From an uncultured Planctomycetia bacterium (GTDB taxonomy: Bacteria; Omnitrophota; Gorgyraeia; Tantalellales; Tantalellaceae): DNA of 64,000 nt. Made by a program: the position numbers and the translations under genes. The first letter of the stretch is position 1, and each line of letters opens with the position of its first letter. The notes under the pieces were generated by a model. The model was not told where the DNA came from. It saw only the letters and a list, made by a program, of their open reading frames with translations, and did no database searches. The stretch is from NCBI GenBank assembly GCA_964409365.1, contig CAYPCX010000003.1, forward strand, positions 84,577 to 148,576, in the 5' to 3' direction. Shown piece after piece: positions 3 through 61,881 of this stretch.

Positions 3-2132
3 ATGCTCTATGCGGGAACGACCGTTGTCAGGGGAACGGGTAAAGCCGTAGTTACCGCCACCGCCATGGATACGGAACTCGGAAAAATAGCCGAGGCGCT
101 CGCCGAGACCAAGACTCCCCCAACGCCGTTCGAGATAGAGGTCGATTCGCTTTCCAAGCATATCACTTTCGCTATACTCTTTCTGGTAGCGGGCGTCGCT
201 TCGCTTTTGTATTTCCGCCACACGATGCCACTGCCCGACATAGCCATATTCTCGCTCAGCCTCGGCGTCGGCGCCATACCGGAAAGTTTGCCGGTGGTCC
301 TTTCGTTCGCCCTCGCTATGGGCGCCCAGCAGATGGCCACACGAAAGGCGCTCGCGCGGCGCCTGGCCATAGTGGAATCGCTCGGATCGCTCGACGTCAT
401 CGGCTCCGATAAGACAGGTACGCTCACAAAGAACGAGATGACCGTCCAGGCGCTTTTCCTTCCGGGCCACGGTATATATCATGTTACCGGCGAAGGGTAT
501 GACCCCACACATGGCCAGATCGAACATCTCCACGAAGGCAAGCAGGGCGCGCTGGAAAGGCTCCTCACAGCCAGCATTTTGTGCAATGACGCGAAAGAAA
601 CGGTAAAGGACGAGAAAAGCATCTACCTCGGGGACCCCACGGAAATCGCCCTCCTGGTAGTGGGCGAAAAAGGCGGCCTCAAGGTCAAAGGCACGATCTC
701 GGATTCCCCGCGCCTCGACGAAATACCCTTTACGAGCGAACGCCAGATGATGACGACGATACACCAGATCAAGGGCGAAAAGACCGCCGTCTGTAAGGGC
801 GCGCCGGAAGTGATCCTGGCGAAATGCACGCACGTGGCAAAGAACGGCGATAAACAGCCGATGGATGAGGCGAACCGCTCGGAGATATCAAAGACCCTCG
901 AGAAGCTCGAGAACGACGCCCTGAGAGTCCTTGCCTTTGCCGGCCGCCCGGTAGCCGAAGGCGCGGACAAAGGCTCCATGGAAGAGGACCTTACCTTTTA
1001 CGGCCTGACGGGCATGATAGACCCGCCGAGGTCCGAGGTCCGCGCGGCCGTCGCCGAAGCGAAGGGAGCTGGCATACGAACGGTCATGATCACGGGCGAT
1101 CACGCGCTGACGGCCCGCGCCATAGCCGGCCGCCTGGGGATGGGGCAGAACGCCGTGACGGGCCGCGACGTCGATGCGATGAGCGACGACGAACTGCAGA
1201 AAAAAGTCCCCGGCATAGACATAGTGGCCCGCGCCACGCCGATCGATAAACTGCGCGTTCTTCAGGCGCTCCAGAGAAATAAACATTTCGCCGCGATGAC
1301 CGGCGACGGCGTGAACGACTCGCCCGCCCTGAAACAGGCCGACGTCGGTGTCGCCATGGGTCTCAGGGGAACCGACGCCGCGAAGGAGGCGTCGGGACTG
1401 GTCCTTCTGGACGACAATTACGCTACCATCGTGGCCGCGGTCGAGGAAGGCAGGCGGATATTCGACAACATACGCAAGTTCGTGAACTACCTCCTTACCT
1501 GTAATATCGGCGAAGTGCTCACCGTCATGCTCGGCGCGTTCTGGGGCCTTCAACCGGTAACGGCAATAATGGTCCTTTGGGTCAACATACTAACCGACGT
1601 TCTTCCGGCGATATCGCTCGCGGTCGACCCGCCGAACCCGGGCCTCATGAAACGCAAGCCGAGACCGCACGACGAGCACATACTCAACAAACCGCTCCTT
1701 CTTACGACCGTCGCTATCGGCTTGAAAAAAGGCTGCATGCTTTTCGGCGTTTTTCTGGCCGGCTACTATTGGATAGGGAAGGGTCTTCCGCACGCGGCGC
1801 GTCTGGAATACGCCCAGACCATGACGTTCACCGGGATCATACTTTACTCGTTCGTCCGCATTTTCGTCATACGAACGTTCGATACGCTGAAATTCTGGTC
1901 GAACCCGTGGCTCGTAATATCACTGGGCGTCGCGGTTTTTCTCCAGGTATTCATCATTTATACACCCGATGTGAACACGTTCTTCGGGCTTCAGCCGCTG
2001 GGATATAAGGCCTGGGGGATACTTTTGGCGATGGCTACGGCGGCCGGCTTCCTCGGGGTATGGATCTCGAAATGGATCGAATCCTGGGCCGGCTCGGTCA
2101 TAGACATAAGTGCCTCAAAACAAACCACTTAA
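3..2132 (+). CDS. Cation-transporting P-type ATPase, 5'-truncated by window edge (C-terminal ~709 aa)
   Basis: Phosphorylation motif DKTGTLT; hinge motif TGDGVNDSPALKQADVGVAMG; C-terminal multi-pass hydrophobic segments. Open at window start. Confidence 0.9.
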   Translation: MLYAGTTVVRGTGKAVVTATAMDTELGKIAEALAETKTPPTPFEIEVDSLSKHITFAILFLVAGVASLLYFRHTMPLPDIAIFSLSLGVGAIPESLPVVLSFALAMGAQQMATRKALARRLAIVESLGSLDVIGSDKTGTLTKNEMTVQALFLPGHGIYHVTGEGYDPTHGQIEHLHEGKQGALERLLTASILCNDAKETVKDEKSIYLGDPTEIALLVVGEKGGLKVKGTISDSPRLDEIPFTSERQMMTTIHQIKGEKTAVCKGAPEVILAKCTHVAKNGDKQPMDEANRSEISKTLEKLENDALRVLAFAGRPVAEGADKGSMEEDLTFYGLTGMIDPPRSEVRAAVAEAKGAGIRTVMITGDHALTARAIAGRLGMGQNAVTGRDVDAMSDDELQKKVPGIDIVARATPIDKLRVLQALQRNKHFAAMTGDGVNDSPALKQADVGVAMGLRGTDAAKEASGLVLLDDNYATIVAAVEEGRRIFDNIRKFVNYLLTCNIGEVLTVMLGAFWGLQPVTAIMVLWVNILTDVLPAISLAVDPPNPGLMKRKPRPHDEHILNKPLLLTTVAIGLKKGCMLFGVFLAGYYWIGKGLPHAARLEYAQTMTFTGIILYSFVRIFVIRTFDTLKFWSNPWLVISLGVAVFLQVFIIYTPDVNTFFGLQPLGYKAWGILLAMATAAGFLGVWISKWIESWAGSVIDISASKQTT

Positions 2133-2151
2133 ACCCAAACCGAACCACTTT

Positions 2152-2184
2152 CATACATCGGGTGTATTATACACCCGATGTATG
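2152..2184. repeat. Perfect palindrome with 15-nt arms ATACATCGGGTGTAT / ATACACCCGATGTAT (copy 1)
   Basis: Second copy with identical arms at 3885-3923 (9-nt loop); half-copy inside the ATPase CDS at 1960-1972. Confidence 0.7.
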
Positions 2185-2197
2185 ATGGATGTATGAT

Positions 2198-2235
2198 GAA
2201 ACTTTTCCTGCGCGAAACTTGTCTAATATAGTGAG
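2198..2235 (+). promoter_or_regulatory. ECF (sigma-E-type) promoter GAAACTT-N16-GTCTAA-TATAGTGAG directly upstream of the ECF sigma gene (autoregulatory)
   Basis: -35 2198-2204, -10 2221-2226, ATG 2239. Confidence 0.6.
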
Positions 2236-2238
2236 ACC

Positions 2239-2796
2239 ATGATAAAAGCGATATCGAGAGAATTACTGGTGCGGGCCTCAGAAGGCGACATGGAAGCCTT
2301 CGAGGAGATATACAGGGCCTCTTCGGGTTATGTTTATACGGTCGCTTATGGGATAACGGCGAGCAGAGAGGACGCCGAAGAGGTGACCCAGGACGTCTTT
2401 GTAAAGATATACCGGAAACTCGGCGGTTTCGGTTTCAGGTCTTCGTTCAAGACCTGGATATACAGGATAACGGCGAATACCGCCATCAACCGGTACAGGA
2501 AAAAGGCCAAGAGGTTCCGCCGGGAGAGGCCCCTGGACGAGGTGCTATCCCGCGTGATCCCCGGGGAGAAAGGCGATGAAAAATTCGACGCCGATCACAA
2601 CAGGACGCTGGTCGATTCGATGCTGAAGAGCCTCCCGCCGGATCAGCGCGCCTGCGTGGTCCTCAGGGAGATCGAGGGCCTGAAGTACGAGGAAATAGCC
2701 CGGACCCTGGAAATAAAGATAAACACGGTAAAGACGCGGCTCAAGAGGGCGCGGAAAAAACTTATGACGATATACGGAAAAGGAGAAAAGCCATGA
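2239..2796 (+). CDS. ECF (sigma-70 family group IV, RpoE-like) sigma factor
   Basis: 185 aa; region-2 like FVKIYRKLGGF...WIYRITANTAINRYRK; region-4 HTH EIARTLEIKINTVKTRLKRARKKL. ATGA start/stop overlap with the downstream anti-sigma gene. Confidence 0.85.
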   Translation: MIKAISRELLVRASEGDMEAFEEIYRASSGYVYTVAYGITASREDAEEVTQDVFVKIYRKLGGFGFRSSFKTWIYRITANTAINRYRKKAKRFRRERPLDEVLSRVIPGEKGDEKFDADHNRTLVDSMLKSLPPDQRACVVLREIEGLKYEEIARTLEIKINTVKTRLKRARKKLMTIYGKGEKP

Positions 2797-3275
2797 GATG
2801 CTCTAAAATAAGAGAACTGGTCCTCACGGATTATACGGACGGGGAACTTAATGAACGCACGCGCGTAGAGGTCGAAGCCCACATGCGGACGTGCGAAAAT
2901 TGCCGGCGGTTCGAAGCCCGTCTTAAAAGCAGGGTCTCCGACCCCCTGAGAAAAGCGCAGCGGCTCGAACCCCCCGAATACCTGTGGTCGCGCATCAAAG
3001 GCGCGATAGAGGAAAGGGCCAAGGAAAACCCGCTCACCGCGCTGAAAGAACGGCTCGAGTCCGTTCTCGTCGTCAGAAGGCCGGCCCTGGCCCTGGCATC
3101 CCTTGCGGTTATCCTGATCGCGGCTGTCTTTTTCACCGGGACGTTCATAGAAAGATCCCGGCTTAACAGTTATATTGAAGAACAGGTCGATTTTTTGGAG
3201 ACACTTAACAACGGGAACGGCAACGGCTACACGTATGACGATATAGGCATCCCGATGGAAGATCTTTTCCTCTAG
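2793..3275 (+). CDS. Anti-sigma factor, zf-HC2 type (putative zinc finger) with single TM helix
   Basis: H-x3-C-x2-C motif HMRTCENC near N-terminus; TM helix PALALASLAVILIAAVFFTG. Translationally coupled to the ECF sigma gene. Confidence 0.7.
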   Translation: MRCSKIRELVLTDYTDGELNERTRVEVEAHMRTCENCRRFEARLKSRVSDPLRKAQRLEPPEYLWSRIKGAIEERAKENPLTALKERLESVLVVRRPALALASLAVILIAAVFFTGTFIERSRLNSYIEEQVDFLETLNNGNGNGYTYDDIGIPMEDLFL

Positions 3276-3277
3276 AG

Positions 3278-3315
3278 GGAACTTTTTCCGGAGCACCTTT
3301 GTCTAAGACAGTGAG
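3278..3315 (+). promoter_or_regulatory. ECF (sigma-E-type) promoter GGAACTT-N16-GTCTAA-GACAGTGAG upstream of CpxP-like gene
   Basis: -35 3278-3284, -10 3301-3306; begins 3 nt after anti-sigma stop. Confidence 0.6.
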
Positions 3316-3350
3316 AGGCGGAAAAAGGACGATCTTAAAAAAGGAGGAGA

Positions 3351-3854
3351 ATGATGAAAATGACAATAAGGACATTTACGGCATGTTTGGTCGCGATAAC
3401 TCTCTTGACCGCGGCGCCGCTTGCTTTAGCGCAGCCCGCTCAGGGCAGCGGACCCGAGGGCGCGGGAGAATGCTCAAGGGGCGGCGCGCGCGCCGGATTC
3501 CTCGAACAGCTCGATCTCACCGACGAGCAGAAAGAACGGATGAAAGAGCAGCGCAAGGCGAACAGGGAGAAGATGAAAGAGCTCATGGGATCCCTCAGGA
3601 ACGAACGCAACGCCCTGCGGGACGAACTGAAAAAACCCGACGCCAGCATGGATTCGGTCGCGGGCACCGTCGCAAAGATGAAAACGGTGCAGTCAGAAAT
3701 GATCGACCAGAGAGTGAACGGTTTTCTCACGATGAAGGAGATCCTCACCCCCGAACAGTTCCAGAAACTCCTCGAACTGAAGGAACAGAGGAAACACCGC
3801 GGCGGCAAACGCCGCATGGAAAAAAAGCACCACATGCGAGGGGACTGGGACTGA
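3351..3854 (+). CDS. CpxP/Spy-family periplasmic LTXXQ-motif protein (envelope stress chaperone-like)
   Basis: Signal peptide MMKMTIRTFTACLVAITLLTAAPLALA; two LTxxQ motifs (LTDEQK, LTPEQF); helical K/E-rich repeats. SD GGAGGAG upstream. Confidence 0.7.
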   Translation: MMKMTIRTFTACLVAITLLTAAPLALAQPAQGSGPEGAGECSRGGARAGFLEQLDLTDEQKERMKEQRKANREKMKELMGSLRNERNALRDELKKPDASMDSVAGTVAKMKTVQSEMIDQRVNGFLTMKEILTPEQFQKLLELKEQRKHRGGKRRMEKKHHMRGDWD

Positions 3855-3884
3855 TAACATAGAGCCCGGGCGAACACACCGAAC

Positions 3885-3923
3885 ATACATCGGGTGTATG
3901 ACCAGGTTATACACCCGATGTAT
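3885..3923. repeat. Palindrome copy 2 (same 15-nt arms, 9-nt loop)
   Basis: Between CpxP-like stop (3854) and next gene start (3951). Confidence 0.7.
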
Positions 3924-3950
3924 AAATGTTCATAACGAAGGGAGAACAAG

Positions 3951-4424
3951 ATGAAGACCAGGAACGCGACGATCTTTGTCATGATCTTTTGCGCGGTATT
4001 AATGCTGGCCGAGACGGCATCCGCCGTTCCCCACAGATGGTATCCCCGAAGGAGGGTGGTCAAACCGGTGGTCGTGACCACCAAACCGCGAGTGGTGGTG
4101 ACCAGCCCCGCAAAGACAACGAAAGTGGCCGAAGGCTGGGGATCGCAAGCGATCACCCAGGAACCCATATCCCCCGAAATCATTAAAGAACGCGGTATAA
4201 AGCCGGACCAGGGCCTTATCGACTTCGAGGTATACCCCACATCCACAAAGATATATCTGGACGGGTCCTATAAGGGAACGGCGGGAACGCTCAACAAGGA
4301 GAAACACTCGCTCAAAGCCACGGCCGGCAGACACACCATCGAGCTGAAAAAGAAACTGGCGCCGACCAAGATAGTGAGGATACGCGTCGAGGCGAGACAC
4401 AAGACCCGGCTGGAACAATATTAA
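3951..4424 (+). CDS. Secreted protein with possible C-terminal PEGA-like beta domain
   Basis: Signal peptide; Pro/Val/Thr-rich linker; C-terminal FEVYPTSTKIYLDGSYKGTAG resembles PEGA domain pattern. Confidence 0.4.
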   Translation: MKTRNATIFVMIFCAVLMLAETASAVPHRWYPRRRVVKPVVVTTKPRVVVTSPAKTTKVAEGWGSQAITQEPISPEIIKERGIKPDQGLIDFEVYPTSTKIYLDGSYKGTAGTLNKEKHSLKATAGRHTIELKKKLAPTKIVRIRVEARHKTRLEQY

Positions 4425-4473
4425 CTTGAACTCTCCCATAAATCCACGTAGAATAAATAAAAACGGAGCATGA

Positions 4474-6540
4474 ATGGGAGATCTAAGAGAACTTGACCTC
4501 AAGAGCTGTTACTGGTATGACCGGGATGACATCCTTTTCGACCTCTATCTTCCCGCGCTATCGGCAGCATCCGCCTGCAGCAAGGTAACCGGCCCTTTAT
4601 CCTCCGAGACCCTTTCGGATCTCGCGAAGAACCTCCCTCAATTCGCCAGAAAAGGCGGACGCACTTTTCTTATCACCAGTATAGTCCTGCCCGGCGGGGG
4701 AACAGTCTCCGCGGAAGATATCGTGAAAAACACCGAGAACAGGGTCCTCAAAGAGATCGGCTATGTCAAGGACGAGGCAAAAAGGGACGGTATCGCGCTT
4801 CTGGGATGGATGCTGAAGACGGGCAACCTGCAGATAAAGATAGCCGTCGTTCCTGAGGGAGCGGAAGCGCCGGAGATAGGCATACTGGAAGATAATACAG
4901 GGAACCGCCTTTCCTTCGCGGGTTCCGGGAACTCGGCAGTGCATGCCTTCAGGAGCTGGGACGAGAGCGGAAAATACGTCGATGCTGATCTCGGTATCTT
5001 CGCGGGCCTCTGGAAATGCGAGGCAAAAAAGACAAAGGTCTATCCCGCGTCCGAGATGTTCACGAACGGCCTTATCCGGTTCGCCCCGGACGACGAGGCC
5101 GCATTCCTGCGCCTGGCACGGTCGATGTCCGAACGGCTGATGGGCCAGCGCAGGAAAAGCGTCGTAAAAAAAGATCTGAGAAAATACCAGGAAGAGGCCG
5201 TGAATGCCTGGCTGGATAGCGGCGCCAAAGGCATACTGGAAATGGCCCCGGCAACGGGCAAGACCTTCACGTCAGTCCATGCGATCGAGGCCCTGAGCAT
5301 TAAAACAGGGAAACTCCTGGCCGTTATAGTAGTACCTCACGAGTACCAGATCTCACTGTGGAAAAAGGAATTAACGGATTTTTTCGGTTATGATTTCGCG
5401 GTCAAAGAAGTTCGCGGGGATATGTCCCAATGGCCTGAGATCCTTGAAGAAAACATTAAGAAATACGCCTCGGGTGAAATGGACCGGCTGGCGATCCTTA
5501 CCATGTATAACACGTTTTCCACAAGCAGGTTCCAGGACCTTGCAGCCGGTCTTCCGGGCGGGGATCCCCAGACGCTGCTTGTCGCAGACGAGGTCCGTTT
5601 CATGAACTTCCCCGAGTTCAGAAGCGGCATGAAAGACACGTACAGGTACAGGCTGGGCCTGAGCGCCGTGCCGCGCGACTGGCTCGAAGACGCGGGGGAA
5701 GATACGCTAAAACAATATTTCGGCGGTACGGTTTACAGCTTTACTTTACAGGACGCTATCCCGGAATTCCTGAGCCCCTACAGCTATTTCCCGCAAACGG
5801 TCGAAATGGGACCCGCCGAGCTCAGCAGATACGCTGAAAAGGCGGGGGAGGATCTCGAGCGGCTATCAAGAGAAAGAGCAAGGGTCATTCTGGAAAACCC
5901 GGGGATACGTGCCGGGTTCGAAAGGATCATACAGGACCTTAAAGAAGAGGGTCAGGTAAACCATCTCCTGGTCTATTGCAGGCCGGAGCAGCTCGATTGG
6001 GTCACGGAAACGCTGAAAGGCAAGGACATCCCGTATCACCGCCTCGACCTGCGGGAATCCAGGGAAGAAAGACGCCTTATGCTCGAACGTTTTAAAAAAG
6101 GCTCTGTCGCGGCCCTTTGCGCCGCGCGCTGTCTCGACCAGGGACTTGAAATGCCGGCGGCGAAAACGGTCATCTTCCTGGCCGCCGATTCCAGCCCCGC
6201 GCAATACATCCAGAGGAGGGGAAAAGTGCTCCTCAAAGACGCGGATAAGGAACAAACGGACATCTATGATTTTATAGTTCTTCCCGCCGAAGGACAGACA
6301 TTGAACAGGATGCTGTACCTCGCCGAAAGGAAGCTTTTCGATAAGCAGCTTGCCCAGGCCCAGATTTTTTACGTGAACGCCAGGAACAGTTCCGACGTGA
6401 TGCCAAAGATGCGCCAGATCGCTTCCCGGTACGACCTCGAGCTTAAGGAAACATCTGCCCCTCCACGCAGGACCGCGCCCATGGCAAGGCTCGGGGGCCT
6501 GGGCCGGCAAAGCTACCTCAATTCACAGAACGGAAAATAA
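4474..6540 (+). CDS. Superfamily-2 DEAD/DEAH-box helicase (type III restriction Res-subunit-like) with ~240-aa uncharacterised N-terminal domain
   Basis: Walker A MAPATGKT (motif I); motif II VADEVR (DExx-type); helicase-C motifs QGLEMP (V) and QRRGKV (VI). N-terminal domain has a GSGNS stretch but no clear HxK. 688 aa. Confidence 0.75.
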   Translation: MGDLRELDLKSCYWYDRDDILFDLYLPALSAASACSKVTGPLSSETLSDLAKNLPQFARKGGRTFLITSIVLPGGGTVSAEDIVKNTENRVLKEIGYVKDEAKRDGIALLGWMLKTGNLQIKIAVVPEGAEAPEIGILEDNTGNRLSFAGSGNSAVHAFRSWDESGKYVDADLGIFAGLWKCEAKKTKVYPASEMFTNGLIRFAPDDEAAFLRLARSMSERLMGQRRKSVVKKDLRKYQEEAVNAWLDSGAKGILEMAPATGKTFTSVHAIEALSIKTGKLLAVIVVPHEYQISLWKKELTDFFGYDFAVKEVRGDMSQWPEILEENIKKYASGEMDRLAILTMYNTFSTSRFQDLAAGLPGGDPQTLLVADEVRFMNFPEFRSGMKDTYRYRLGLSAVPRDWLEDAGEDTLKQYFGGTVYSFTLQDAIPEFLSPYSYFPQTVEMGPAELSRYAEKAGEDLERLSRERARVILENPGIRAGFERIIQDLKEEGQVNHLLVYCRPEQLDWVTETLKGKDIPYHRLDLRESREERRLMLERFKKGSVAALCAARCLDQGLEMPAAKTVIFLAADSSPAQYIQRRGKVLLKDADKEQTDIYDFIVLPAEGQTLNRMLYLAERKLFDKQLAQAQIFYVNARNSSDVMPKMRQIASRYDLELKETSAPPRRTAPMARLGGLGRQSYLNSQNGK

Positions 6541-6544
6541 CGAA

Positions 6545-6961
6545 ATGCAGGTGAACGAAAAAAGGACCTTTATCGGCAGATTTTCTTCGAACGCGGACCT
6601 TTTAAGCTCCCTCACTGGTCTCTGCAAAGAGGAGAACATCAGGCTGGGCGTCTTCACGGTCATCGGCGCGCTGAAATGCGCTAAACTGGGCTACTATGAC
6701 CAGGCCGCCAAAAGATACGTGACGAACGTGGAGCTTGATAAAAAGCTCGAGATCACCTCCTGCATAGGCAACATATCGCTCATGGATTCGGAAATATTCG
6801 TGCATGCCCATATCACCATGGCCGACAGGGAAGGGAAGTGCTTCGGCGGCCACCTCATGCCGGGCGCGACCATATTCGCCGCCGAATACCACATAAAAGA
6901 GCTCATCGGCGCTGAACTCTCCCGCAAACCCGACCCCGATACCGGCCTTTCTCTCTGGTAA
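6545..6961 (+). CDS. PPC (DUF296) domain protein, predicted DNA-binding
   Basis: 138 aa. Conserved DUF296 pattern: GxFxVIGAL..., HAHITMADREGKCFGGHL, AEYHIKEL. Begins 5 nt after the helicase stop. Confidence 0.7.
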   Translation: MQVNEKRTFIGRFSSNADLLSSLTGLCKEENIRLGVFTVIGALKCAKLGYYDQAAKRYVTNVELDKKLEITSCIGNISLMDSEIFVHAHITMADREGKCFGGHLMPGATIFAAEYHIKELIGAELSRKPDPDTGLSLW

Positions 6962-52934: not shown

Positions 52935-52972
52935 GGAACTTTTTCGCCTCCCGTACTGTCTAAGACAGTAGA
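52935..52972 (+). promoter_or_regulatory. ECF (sigma-E-type) promoter GGAACTT-N16-GTCTAA-GACAGTAGA upstream of glycine-zipper lipoprotein gene
   Basis: -35 52935-52941, -10 52958-52963; gene start 52986/52989. Confidence 0.55.
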
Positions 52973-52985
52973 AGGGAGGAGGTGC

Positions 52986-53426
52986 GTGATGAAAAAGTTG
53001 ACCATGATCGTGCTCATTCTGGCGTTCAGCATGACCTTAGTACTGCCGTGCCCGGCCCAGGAAGACTCTGCTATAGCGATCATAAAAGCGGGCCTTTTGG
53101 GGGCAGGCGCGGGGGCTATCGGCGGGGCGGCTTCCGGAGCCAAGGGAAGGGACATCTGGAAAGGGGCCCTCGCGGGGGCCGGGACCAATATCATAGGGGG
53201 AGCCCTTCTGGACACGATTACCCGCAGTAGCACCACCACGCAGACCCAACGGTACTATGTGCAGCCTCAGCGCGCGGCGTATTCCCAGCCGGTAACGTAT
53301 TCTCAGCCTTCGTACACCGCGCACAGCACCCCCGGTGAGAGCTTCGATGATTACTTCCAGCGGGGGTACTACCTGGGGTACAAGGAAGGGTATGAGCAGG
53401 GATTCCGTGACGGCATGCGGCAGTGA
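52986..53426 (+). CDS. Glycine-zipper (Gly-zipper/YMGG-like) outer-membrane lipoprotein-like protein
   Basis: Signal peptide with Cys; GLLGAGAGAIGGAASGAKG...GALAGAGTNIIGGALL glycine zipper; Q/Y/S-rich tail. Confidence 0.6.
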   Translation: MMKKLTMIVLILAFSMTLVLPCPAQEDSAIAIIKAGLLGAGAGAIGGAASGAKGRDIWKGALAGAGTNIIGGALLDTITRSSTTTQTQRYYVQPQRAAYSQPVTYSQPSYTAHSTPGESFDDYFQRGYYLGYKEGYEQGFRDGMRQ

Positions 53427-58767: not shown

Positions 58768-59269
58768 CCGGGGGCGGTTCCATTAGCTTTCTGATGGCTT
58801 CAAAGATCGCACAGATCTCCCCGTCATGTTTTTCAACTTTTCGTTCCAACTCGGCTAATTTATGCATTAGCTCCTTATGCGTGACGACCATTTCTTTGAG
58901 TTTCACAAAAACTCGCATAATAGCAATGTTTACCTGCGCTGCCCGTTCGCTGTTCAATACGCTGGAAAGCATCAAGATCCCATGCTCGGTGAATGTATAA
59001 GGTAGATACCGTCTGCCTCCTCGTTTTGAGGTTTCAAATTGAAACCTCAAACTTTCGCTTTCCGCTCTATTCAGTTGGAACATGAAGTCCTTTGGAAAAC
59101 GATTTTTATTGCGCCTTACAGCCAGATTTAAAGATTTCGTGGGTACTCCATAAAGGATCGCCAGATCTTTGTCCAGCATCACTTTCTTGCCCCTGATCAG
59201 CAGTATTTTACCCGCGATGGTCTTCTGCGAAATCAGTCCTGTCATAACCGTTTTCTTCCGTTTCCCCAT
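58727..59269 (-). CDS. ORF6N-domain (KilA-N-like, phage antirepressor-type DNA-binding) protein, copy 1
   Basis: RNKNRFPKDFMFQL, RGGRRYLPYTFTEHGILMLSSVLNSERA; C-terminal coiled coil + EPPPAKRKR. 41-nt convergent overlap with the radical-SAM gene. Confidence 0.75.
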   Translation of the reverse strand: MGKRKKTVMTGLISQKTIAGKILLIRGKKVMLDKDLAILYGVPTKSLNLAVRRNKNRFPKDFMFQLNRAESESLRFQFETSKRGGRRYLPYTFTEHGILMLSSVLNSERAAQVNIAIMRVFVKLKEMVVTHKELMHKLAELERKVEKHDGEICAIFEAIRKLMEPPPAKRKREIGFHARP

Positions 59270-61347: not shown

Positions 61348-61881
61348 TCACATGAAACCCGATCCCCGTTTCTTTTTAGCCGGAGGCGGTTCCATTAGCT
61401 TCCTGATAGCGTCGAAAACGATCTTAAATTGTCCGTCATATTTCTTTTCCAAAGTTTCAATTTTTCTCCTTAGACTTTCATACGTCATGATCATTCTCCG
61501 CATACTCACAAATACCCGCATGATCTGAATATTCGCCTTAATTGCCCTTTTGCTGTTCAATACACTCGATAGCATTGCGACCCCTTGCTCGGTAAACACG
61601 CAAGGCAAGTATCTCCGTCCGCCCCAACTTGAGGTCACAAATTGTGACCTCAAGATTGTAACTTCTTTATTTGTAATGATAAACATAAAATCCCCAGGAA
61701 AGCGATCACGATTTCTCTTTACTGCTTGCAATAAAACCTTTGTTTGAACATCATAGAGTTCCGCCAAATCCCTATCTAGCATTACGTTATACCCCCGGAT
61801 CCGATATATCTTGGTCTTAATGTCCTCCAGCGAAACCCTTTTTCCCATGCTTTTCCCCCTTCTTGATATCTTCCTTTTCAT
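61348..61881 (-). CDS. ORF6N-domain protein, copy 2 (paralog of 58727-59269)
   Basis: RNRDRFPGDFMFII, WGGRRYLPCVFTEQGVAMLSSVLNSKRA, FDAIRKLMEPPPAKKKR. Confidence 0.75.
   Translation of the reverse strand: MKRKISRRGKSMGKRVSLEDIKTKIYRIRGYNVMLDRDLAELYDVQTKVLLQAVKRNRDRFPGDFMFIITNKEVTILRSQFVTSSWGGRRYLPCVFTEQGVAMLSSVLNSKRAIKANIQIMRVFVSMRRMIMTYESLRRKIETLEKKYDGQFKIVFDAIRKLMEPPPAKKKRGSGFM

Follow-up and report, generated by a model that had tools for sequence, protein, structure and literature searches.

A predicted autoregulated ECF sigma factor module with a Spy-like gene and a distal target in a Candidatus Omnitrophota genome

The locus described here raises the question of whether three adjacent genes and a repeated sequence motif form one regulatory unit, and of what that unit would control. 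It lies in a 64-kb stretch of DNA from an uncultured Candidatus Omnitrophota bacterium (hereafter the window), in which the gene of a sigma factor of the extracytoplasmic function (ECF) type is followed by the genes of a zinc-finger anti-sigma factor and of a secreted protein with LTXXQ motifs. An earlier note on this DNA had described the region as a self-contained, autoregulated envelope-stress module with a sigma-E-like promoter before both the sigma gene and the LTXXQ gene. Our comparison of sequences supports an autoregulated ECF sigma envelope-stress module of Candidatus Omnitrophota, a reading to which we assign a probability of about 0.82. The three genes and the predicted promoters are as follows, with nt standing for nucleotides, aa for amino acids and ZAS for zinc-binding anti-sigma.

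2198..2226, + strand: promoter P1, with -35 element GAAACTT (2198-2204), a 16-nt spacer and -10 element GTCTAA (2221-2226); predicted to be sigma-dependent and autoregulatory
2239..2796, + strand: ECF (group IV) sigma factor, 185 aa (Pfam Sigma70_r2 and Sigma70_r4_2)
2793..3275, + strand: ZAS-type single-pass anti-sigma factor, 160 aa (Pfam zf-HC2, E 7e-10)
3278..3306, + strand: promoter P2, with -35 element GGAACTT (3278-3284), a 16-nt spacer and -10 element GTCTAA (3301-3306); predicted internal sigma-dependent promoter for the chaperone gene
3351..3854, + strand: Spy/CpxP-family (LTXXQ, PF13801) secreted periplasmic protein, 167 aa (Pfam)
52935..52963, + strand: promoter P3, with -35 element GGAACTT (52935-52941) and -10 element GTCTAA (52958-52963), 25 nt 5' of the ATG at 52989

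The Pfam domains bear out the identities that the earlier note had given to the sigma, zf-HC2 anti-sigma and LTXXQ genes, and both motif copies that it quoted are present where it had placed them, each with a 16-nt spacer and GTCTAA. Three exact matches to GRAACTTTT-N14-GTCTAA are found in the window, against 0.21 expected from dinucleotide-preserving shuffles, and none of 100 shuffles gave three matches in a pattern search that allowed up to two mismatches. A two-block position weight matrix (PWM) built from orthologous sites, with a maximum score of 33, gave 29.9 for P1, 33.0 (the maximum) for P2 and 30.7 for P3; no other position in the window scored 10 or more. All three sites are intergenic, lie on the coding strand and end 12 (P1), 45-48 (P2) and 22-25 nt (P3) 5' of a start codon, and the -35 element of P2 starts 2 nt past the anti-sigma stop codon. 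The conservation claimed for an AGTGAG block four bases past the -10 element is correct for P1 (2230-2235) and P2 (3310-3315) but not for P3, which has AGTAGA there, and across the 69 sites of the comparison described below this block is weakly kept, with the consensus a.TGAA.GG at 0.5-1.0 bit per position.

The placement of the motif in related genomes and its absence from control loci support the proposed module, including a sigma-E-like promoter before both genes. A scan with one genome per species yielded 80 loci. Orthologues were taken to be L001-L052 and L067, with sigma identities of 42-55%; they are mostly Omnitrophota, and some of the metagenome-assembled genomes are labelled Planctomycetia, Elusimicrobia, Desantisbacteria or Syntrophales. 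The controls, L053-L080, are distant ECF loci with 33-39% identity, of which 396 kb were scanned with the PWM on both strands. A regular expression derived from the window matches nearly every orthologous locus at two fixed positions, ~45-55 nt 5' of the sigma match and ~1040 nt 3' of the start of that match. It has no match in the control ECF loci, where the best PWM score was 11.1, which is not near those of the window sites. The motif is thus not common at non-promoter positions; had it been so, this would have spoken against the promoter assignment.

Among the 51 orthologous loci with enough upstream sequence, the motif stands directly before the sigma gene in 36; in a further 13 it precedes a DUF6515 gene that lies upstream in the operon, so that it heads the sigma operon in 49/51. 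An own copy precedes 32 of the 45 orthologous LTXXQ genes, with the -35 element beginning 1-4 nt past the anti-sigma stop. According to BLASTP of all open reading frames (ORFs), the order sigma, anti-sigma, LTXXQ is found in ~45/52 loci; the anti-sigma gene is at position +1 in nearly all 52 and a PF13801 gene at +2 in ~45/52. The consensus of 69 sites is tt..a.GGAACTTTTt-N11-tTGTCTAA...a.TGAA.GG, and it includes positions that were not imposed by the search, namely the T before GTCTAA (66/69 sites) and the TTT after GGAACT. A second LTXXQ paralogue is another occasional motif-bearing target among the relatives.

Further secreted or outer-membrane proteins are associated with the motif in some of these genomes. 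A secreted DUF6515 (PF20125) protein opens the operon in L007, L008, L012, L014, L017, L020, L027, L030, L035, L038, L039, L042 and L052. Its gene sits ~550-950 nt upstream of the sigma gene, and the ECF promoter stands before it instead of before the sigma gene. The C-terminus of this protein carries the conserved motif ...PN.NGSYT.V.L.....GY.GPQGEYYP..P...QLK.LYGK; no homologue of the gene was found in the window by tblastn. The motif also precedes genes of TolC-like outer-membrane efflux proteins (PF02321) in L017 (7161-8496) and L021 (6784-8084), ~2-3 kb downstream of the module.

With regard to promoter type, the -35 element equals the GGAACTT(TT) consensus of E. coli sigma-E (PMC1540707). 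The -10 element TGTCTAA is close to the E. coli consensus (T/C)GGTCAAAA, for which a spacing of 16 nt, a discriminator of 5-6 nt and an A or G start are preferred (PMC1312014). The RpoE promoter consensus GGAACTT / 16 nt / TCAAA is also matched, with a spacing to TCTAA of 17 nt, within the E. coli range of 15-19. By analogy, the start sites would lie at ~2233-2234 for P1, ~3313-3314 for P2 and ~52970 for P3. At +6 to +9 past the -10 element stands a moderately conserved T-G/A-A-A, part of the AGTGAG block, which may mark where the start-site region passes into a purine-rich Shine-Dalgarno sequence. Between the -10 element and the sigma ATG there are 12 nt in the window and, as the median of 29 orthologues, 17 nt, so that the leaders of sigma mRNAs from P1 would be only 5-12 nt long, and 5-6 nt with the start site predicted for P1 in the window; the region 2227-2241 implies near-leaderless or very short-leader sigma mRNAs. 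The P1 and P2 leader RNAs fold no better than shuffles and give no sign of an attenuator. Scans of 1900-4600 for sigma-70 promoters and simple terminators returned nothing above shuffled expectation.

The sigma factor itself shows the composition of an ECF (group IV) protein: Sigma70_r2 at residues 25-91 and Sigma70_r4_2 at residues 124-175, that is, sigma-2 and sigma-4 only, with no region 1.1 or 3. The ATGA overlap with the anti-sigma gene and the motif at the head of the operon in 49/51 loci are consistent with the co-transcribed anti-sigma factor and AAC/GTC promoter of an ECF sigma factor. The protein scores 113 bits against TIGR02937 (sigma70-ECF, cut-off 42.9) and 92.4 bits against the RpoE equivalog TIGR02939 (cut-off 236.15), so that RpoE orthology does not apply, and it stays below every NCBIfam equivalog cut-off. 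The label RpoE-type, used in the earlier note, consequently holds for the promoter but neither for the sigma factor (92 vs 236 bits) nor for the anti-sigma factor, which is ZAS/RsiW-like and not RseA. Among proteins of solved structure, the sigma factor is nearest to M. tuberculosis SigE (96 bits), AlgU (79), RpoE (74) and SigW (74), with CnrH (47) far off, and its best database homologues (50-61% identity) are annotated Candidatus Omnitrophota. The N-terminus M-x-D-I...GD-x-x-AF is kept when 27 homologues are aligned, which places the true start at ATG 2239 rather than at Met18, where the public record P0001 (168 aa) begins. The exact 185-aa sequence is absent from the contig index, where public calls start at Met18, and the short distance between P1 and the ATG probably explains these calls. 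No second ECF gene was found in the window.

The ATG of the anti-sigma gene overlaps the sigma stop codon. In its product, a zf-HC2 domain in the cytoplasm is joined by a single transmembrane segment (~residues 96-118) to a tail of ~42 aa in the periplasm. All 30 orthologues compared retain C3, H30, C34 and C37, which correspond to the predicted ZAS ligand set, H-x3-C-x2-C with an upstream Cys/His. The closest solved relative is RsiW (E 1e-7). No RseA domain was found in this zf-HC2 protein, which does not conform to an RseA/RseB system. Among the orthologues the periplasmic part measures ~42-45 residues and, in ~33/48 of them, ends at the extreme C-terminus with (F/L)GTxIEEYFL-COOH; the window protein (tail region 3150-3275) ends ...IGIPMEDLFL, a degenerate copy of this motif. 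The LTXXQ gene is present in 33/34 loci bearing the tail, and L026, L033, L049 and L050, which have room for the LTXXQ gene, lack both the gene and the tail. Eleven loci that have the LTXXQ gene carry a different anti-sigma tail, so that the association between tail and gene is partial and phylogenetically non-independent; as a pattern in sequences, it is suggestive only. A PDZ or tail-specific protease, or else the chaperone, might recognise the tail motif as its ligand.

The third protein is a member of the Spy/CpxP family. Its gene starts at ATG 3351 or 3354, the latter being more likely, the signal peptide of the product ends in ALA-Q, and the protein carries two LTXXQ motifs (LDLTDEQ and ILTPEQ) and a basic, K/R-rich C-terminal tail. 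It scores above the family cut-offs of PF13801 (Metal_resist; 43 bits, cut-off 29.2) and PF07813 (33.7 bits, cut-off 24.3) and below the NCBIfam equivalog cut-offs for Spy (NF007769, 43 vs 174) and CpxP (NF009391, 56.5 vs 148), and is therefore a family member but an orthologue of neither. A profile of 31 orthologues, searched against the PDB, favours Spy (3oeo, 8.6e-11), followed by ZraP (2e-7), CpxP (0.009) and CnrX/NccX (0.02-0.03). The description of the gene as CpxP-type was thus right as to family, within which Spy, rather than CpxP, is the nearer relative. Invariant residues occur only in the two LTXXQ motifs of the 31 orthologues, and no conserved His, Met or Cys was found among them, which does not match the ligands of CnrX and speaks against a metal site of the CnrX kind. 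A model built with AlphaFold2 from 13 database homologues has a mean predicted local distance difference test score (pLDDT) of 78, with 89-97 in the core. The top 29 Foldseek matches of this model in the PDB all belong to the CpxP / CnrX / STV / ZraP / Spy / NccX family, which points to the hooked-hairpin fold, with template modelling (TM) scores on the target of 0.45-0.74 and modest E-values of 0.01-0.25. The protein may act as a Spy-type ATP-independent chaperone, a holdase or foldase.

Contrary to the earlier note, the module is not fully self-contained: that note missed the third promoter, P3, which lies 50 kb away and is predicted to drive a conserved regulon gene. The genes behind P3 are as follows.

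52986/52989-53426, + strand: glycine-zipper secreted protein (Gly-zipper_YMGG), 145/146 aa; homologues with PF13441
53477-53701: Asr-like basic secreted protein, 74 aa (weak Asr match), 3' of the Gly-zipper gene

The homologues of the Gly-zipper protein carry PF13441 and come from Omnitrophota. Six homologue loci (L081-L086) were compared. In four of them (L081-L084) the motif ends 24-26 nt before the start codon of the Gly-zipper gene, and in L081, L084 and L085 the gene is located beside a sigma / anti-sigma / LTXXQ module, in L085 only 15 nt after the LTXXQ gene. L086 encodes a longer relative (253 aa), without the motif and without an adjoining module. The kept motif and the linkage to the module in relatives identify the Gly-zipper gene as a conserved regulon member, which appears to have moved 50 kb away in this genome with its promoter retained. 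P3 probably drives the Asr-like gene as well.

The module is bracketed by two palindromes.

2151..2185, + strand: perfect palindrome, 17+17 nt (TCATACATCGGGTGTAT / ATACACCCGATGTATGA), between the stop codon of a P-type ATPase gene (2132) and P1
3885..3923, + strand: palindrome, 19+19 nt, 30 nt past the LTXXQ stop codon

Both have a common 15-nt stem, ATACATCGGGTGTAT, and together they bracket exactly the three genes; only one other inverted repeat in the window is equally long. The predicted RNA folds are very stable (-27.9 kcal/mol, z -5.9, for 2151-2185; -30.6 kcal/mol, z -6.6, for 3885-3923), and of 41 orthologous loci, 18 have a very stable hairpin, many with T-tracts and often of canonical terminator form, at most 90 nt past the LTXXQ gene. 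The upstream hairpin is probably a terminator or insulator and the downstream one probably the module terminator; that both are insulating terminators is held with moderate confidence. The pair might instead belong to a repeat family or be left over from an insertion of the module. At 1960-1972, inside the ATPase coding sequence, 13 nt of one hairpin arm recur, and this copy might base-pair with the left arm of the upstream hairpin. In metagenomes the 15-nt stem gave only single, scattered chance matches among the matches listed. No Rfam family was found in the whole window at gathering thresholds, and at E<=1 the sole match in 2100-4000 was a meaningless miRNA match on a hairpin. An integron attC identity of the flanking palindromes was ruled out by inspection, as the core GTTRRRY is unmatched.

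Directly upstream of the module is the P-type ATPase gene (3-2132). On the other side, just past the second hairpin, ORF 3951-4424 encodes a 157-aa secreted protein whose C-terminal half resembles, by eye, a PEGA-like beta domain. This ORF was rejected as a part of the module; it has no Pfam or NCBIfam match and no conserved counterpart next to orthologous modules. The stretch 4474-6961 encodes a 688-aa ResIII/Helicase_C protein, with a long N-terminal region lacking a family match, and after it a PCC-domain (PF03479) protein, both unrelated to the module. Elsewhere in the window, two similar perfect 13+13-nt palindromes, 59025-59051 (TTTGAGGTTTCAA/TTGAAACCTCAAA) and 61628-61654 (CTTGAGGTCACAA/TTGTGACCTCAAG), lie 2.6 kb apart and may be operators of a common regulator.

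Taken together, the sequences suggest the following mode of action. In the resting state, the co-translated, single-pass anti-sigma factor would use its cytoplasmic zinc-finger domain to keep the sigma factor at the membrane. A periplasmic signal, acting via the short conserved periplasmic tail, would remove the anti-sigma factor, probably by regulated proteolysis, by analogy with RsiW and RseA. The free sigma factor would then direct RNA polymerase to GGAACTTTT-N14-TGTCTAA promoters. From P1 it would re-express both itself and its anti-sigma factor, with positive and negative feedback. P2 would add transcription of the secreted, Spy-like ATP-independent chaperone, whose gene would also be reached by read-through from P1. 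P3 would drive the small glycine-zipper envelope protein and probably the Asr-like basic protein too. What sequence and comparison establish is the identity of the genes, the motif, its specificity and where it is placed, whereas recognition of the motif by this sigma factor, the start sites, the signal, activation by proteolysis and the chaperone activity are inferred.

Several points weigh against this account. The pairing of this sigma factor with this promoter is deduced from the logic of autoregulation and from there being no second ECF gene in the window, and the case for this uncultured organism is built throughout on sequence comparison. The 12 nt between the -10 element of P1 and the sigma ATG, with no Shine-Dalgarno sequence, are unusual, and translation of the sigma factor from P1 is putative. 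The absence of an own promoter copy at 13/45 orthologous LTXXQ genes means that P2 is not obligatory. Finally, the two bounding hairpins have no T-tracts, which is why the simple terminator scan misses both.

The module may be compared with several known systems. In the ECF classification 2.0, group ECF281 is described with a zinc-finger anti-sigma factor at +1 and a PF13801 protein at +2, and is tentatively assigned to heavy-metal stress (Casas-Pastor 2021, PMC7826278). The present module has an identical gene order and both of these neighbours, and is likened to ECF281 by gene order alone. The available portions of the main text of PMC7826278 name no characterised member of this group. They link it to metal stress, whereas the LTXXQ proteins here are Spy-like and have no conserved metal ligands; the +2 gene is probably misnamed as heavy-metal resistance here, and Spy-like chaperone fits better.

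A closer functional parallel is found in Phocaeicola vulgatus, where RNA-seq after deletion of the anti-sigma gene cirZ showed cirY to be induced together with the co-transcribed spy and two genes nearby (PMC13114119, 2026). Its authors note that this differs from the control by CpxAR/BaeSR in E. coli (PMC13114119); according to literature quoted there, E. coli spy and cpxP are under CpxR/BaeR and not sigma-E. CirY/CirZ is likewise an autoregulated ECF/anti-sigma pair with a downstream spy-like gene, the likeness considered here being one of layout and regulation. It is found in Bacteroidota, whereas the module described here belongs to Omnitrophota; spy is reported to be co-transcribed there, whereas an extra conserved internal promoter is present here; and its regulon contains glycan or peptidoglycan hydrolases instead of Gly-zipper, DUF6515 and Asr-like proteins. 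An earlier microarray study in Prevotella had placed two putative genes, one for CpxP (LTXXQ motif) and one for an ECF sigma-E factor, among those with the strongest induction on solid medium (PMC2633007). The earlier note had considered ECF control of a CpxP-type gene to be a rewiring worth documenting. Such control is apparent in this genome, but the ECF281 context and CirYZ-spy make it an instance of a pattern already documented.

Among the well-studied systems, E. coli sigma-E/RseA (ECF02) has the same promoter grammar (-35 GGAACTT(TT), -10 (G)GTC(A/T)AA, ~16-17 nt), and autoregulation and periplasmic folding factors in the regulon, as in the present module. It differs in using RseA plus RseB, where the Omnitrophota locus has a ZAS protein with a 42-aa periplasmic tail and no RseB. 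In B. subtilis, RsiW is a single-pass ZAS protein like the anti-sigma factor here, and SigW is among the closest sigma factors, but RsiW, which is cleared by regulated intramembrane proteolysis, has a longer extracytoplasmic domain, and promoter and regulon differ. CnrYXH of Cupriavidus metallidurans (ECF291) shares an ECF sigma factor, a small membrane anti-sigma factor with a short periplasmic tail and a PF13801-fold protein; in the modelled structure, the LTXXQ protein matches CnrX with a TM score of 0.65-0.71 on the target. However, its genes are arranged as cnrY-X-H, CnrY does not belong to the ZAS proteins, CnrH is distant (47 bits) and the metal ligands of CnrX, His/His/Glu/His plus Met, are not kept. 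Finally, the LTXXQ protein shares with the CpxP/Spy/ZraP family its two LTXXQ motifs, signal peptide and hooked-hairpin helical fold, whereas its gene is predicted to be under an ECF sigma factor instead of a two-component system.

Other explanations have to be weighed against this background. One of them is compatible with the module as proposed: the LTXXQ protein may also be part of the sensor, binding and protecting the anti-sigma tail (...GTxIEEYFL-COOH) until unfolded envelope proteins titrate it off, whereupon the exposed tail would meet a protease and the sigma factor would be freed, in a CpxP/CpxA- or CnrX/CnrY-like loop. There are precedents in the family: CpxP is an inhibitor of CpxA and ZraP a repressor of ZraSR, and CnrY receives the signal of CnrX at its short periplasmic tail. 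The short periplasmic part with its recurrent C-terminal motif, the tight synteny of the three genes and the joint absence of tail and gene in four loci are in line with such a loop, and conserved neighbours of ECF genes may, according to Casas-Pastor et al. (PMC7826278), be regulators, targets or both. On the other hand, the 11 loci with a different tail make the association partial, Spy, the closest relative by sequence, has no known signalling role, and the window itself has only a degenerate copy of the tail motif. We therefore regard a sensory role as possible but doubtful. A specific version of it, a chaperone-titration switch in which free chaperone caps the tail, unfolded envelope proteins compete for the chaperone, and the bared hydrophobic C-terminus is recognised by a PDZ or tail-specific protease that begins the degradation of the anti-sigma factor, must be considered unlikely. 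If true, it would represent a CpxP-style feedback sensor within an ECF pathway and a general input for uncharacterised ECF281-type systems.

The nature of the signal could also be different. In a heavy-metal response, the LTXXQ protein would be a CnrX- or ZraP-like periplasmic metal sensor or binder, as might be expected from PF13801 being its best Pfam match, from the modelled fold, which also matches CnrX and ZraP, from the description of ECF281, ECF290 and ECF291 as "related to heavy-metal stress" in PMC7826278, from the adjoining P-type ATPase gene and from the motif before TolC-like efflux genes in L017 and L021. However, the 31 orthologues have no conserved His, Met or Cys for a CnrX-type site, and their profile favours Spy far over CnrX/NccX. 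The ATPase gene is divided from the module by a strong hairpin and does not adjoin it in orthologous loci, and the Gly-zipper, DUF6515 and Asr-like regulon members are not metal-specific; a metal response is accordingly improbable. The invariant ZAS ligands and a weak match to the RsrA model could instead point to cytoplasmic thiol or redox stress, sensed by the zinc finger as in RsrA rather than through a periplasmic signal. Most ZAS proteins are not known to be redox sensors. Moreover, the closest solved relative is the membrane-bound, proteolysis-controlled RsiW, the anti-sigma factor has a transmembrane segment and a conserved periplasmic tail, and all predicted targets are secreted or envelope proteins, so that we consider redox sensing to be quite improbable. 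It is more improbable still that the repeated motif is not the promoter of this sigma factor but a chance repeat, the site of another regulator or a small repeat element. A short palindrome (TGTCTAAGACA) in the -10 region of P2 and P3 could be an operator, but it is missing in P1 and not conserved, and the fixed 16-nt spacing, the orientation and start-codon distance kept over ~50 genomes and the blank control loci speak against these alternatives.

The autoregulated ECF module thus remains the preferred reading of this locus. It leaves the general picture unchanged, as ECF control of Spy-family genes was previously documented. The comparison also yields a clean set of data on the ECF281-type architecture. 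For Omnitrophota, which are uncultured and poorly understood, it would give a regulon that can be predicted from sequence, with one sigma factor and one promoter rule, GGAACTTTT-N14-TGTCTAA, and with a conserved set of members comprising the Spy-like chaperone, Gly-zipper_YMGG and DUF6515 proteins and, in some genomes, TolC-like proteins.

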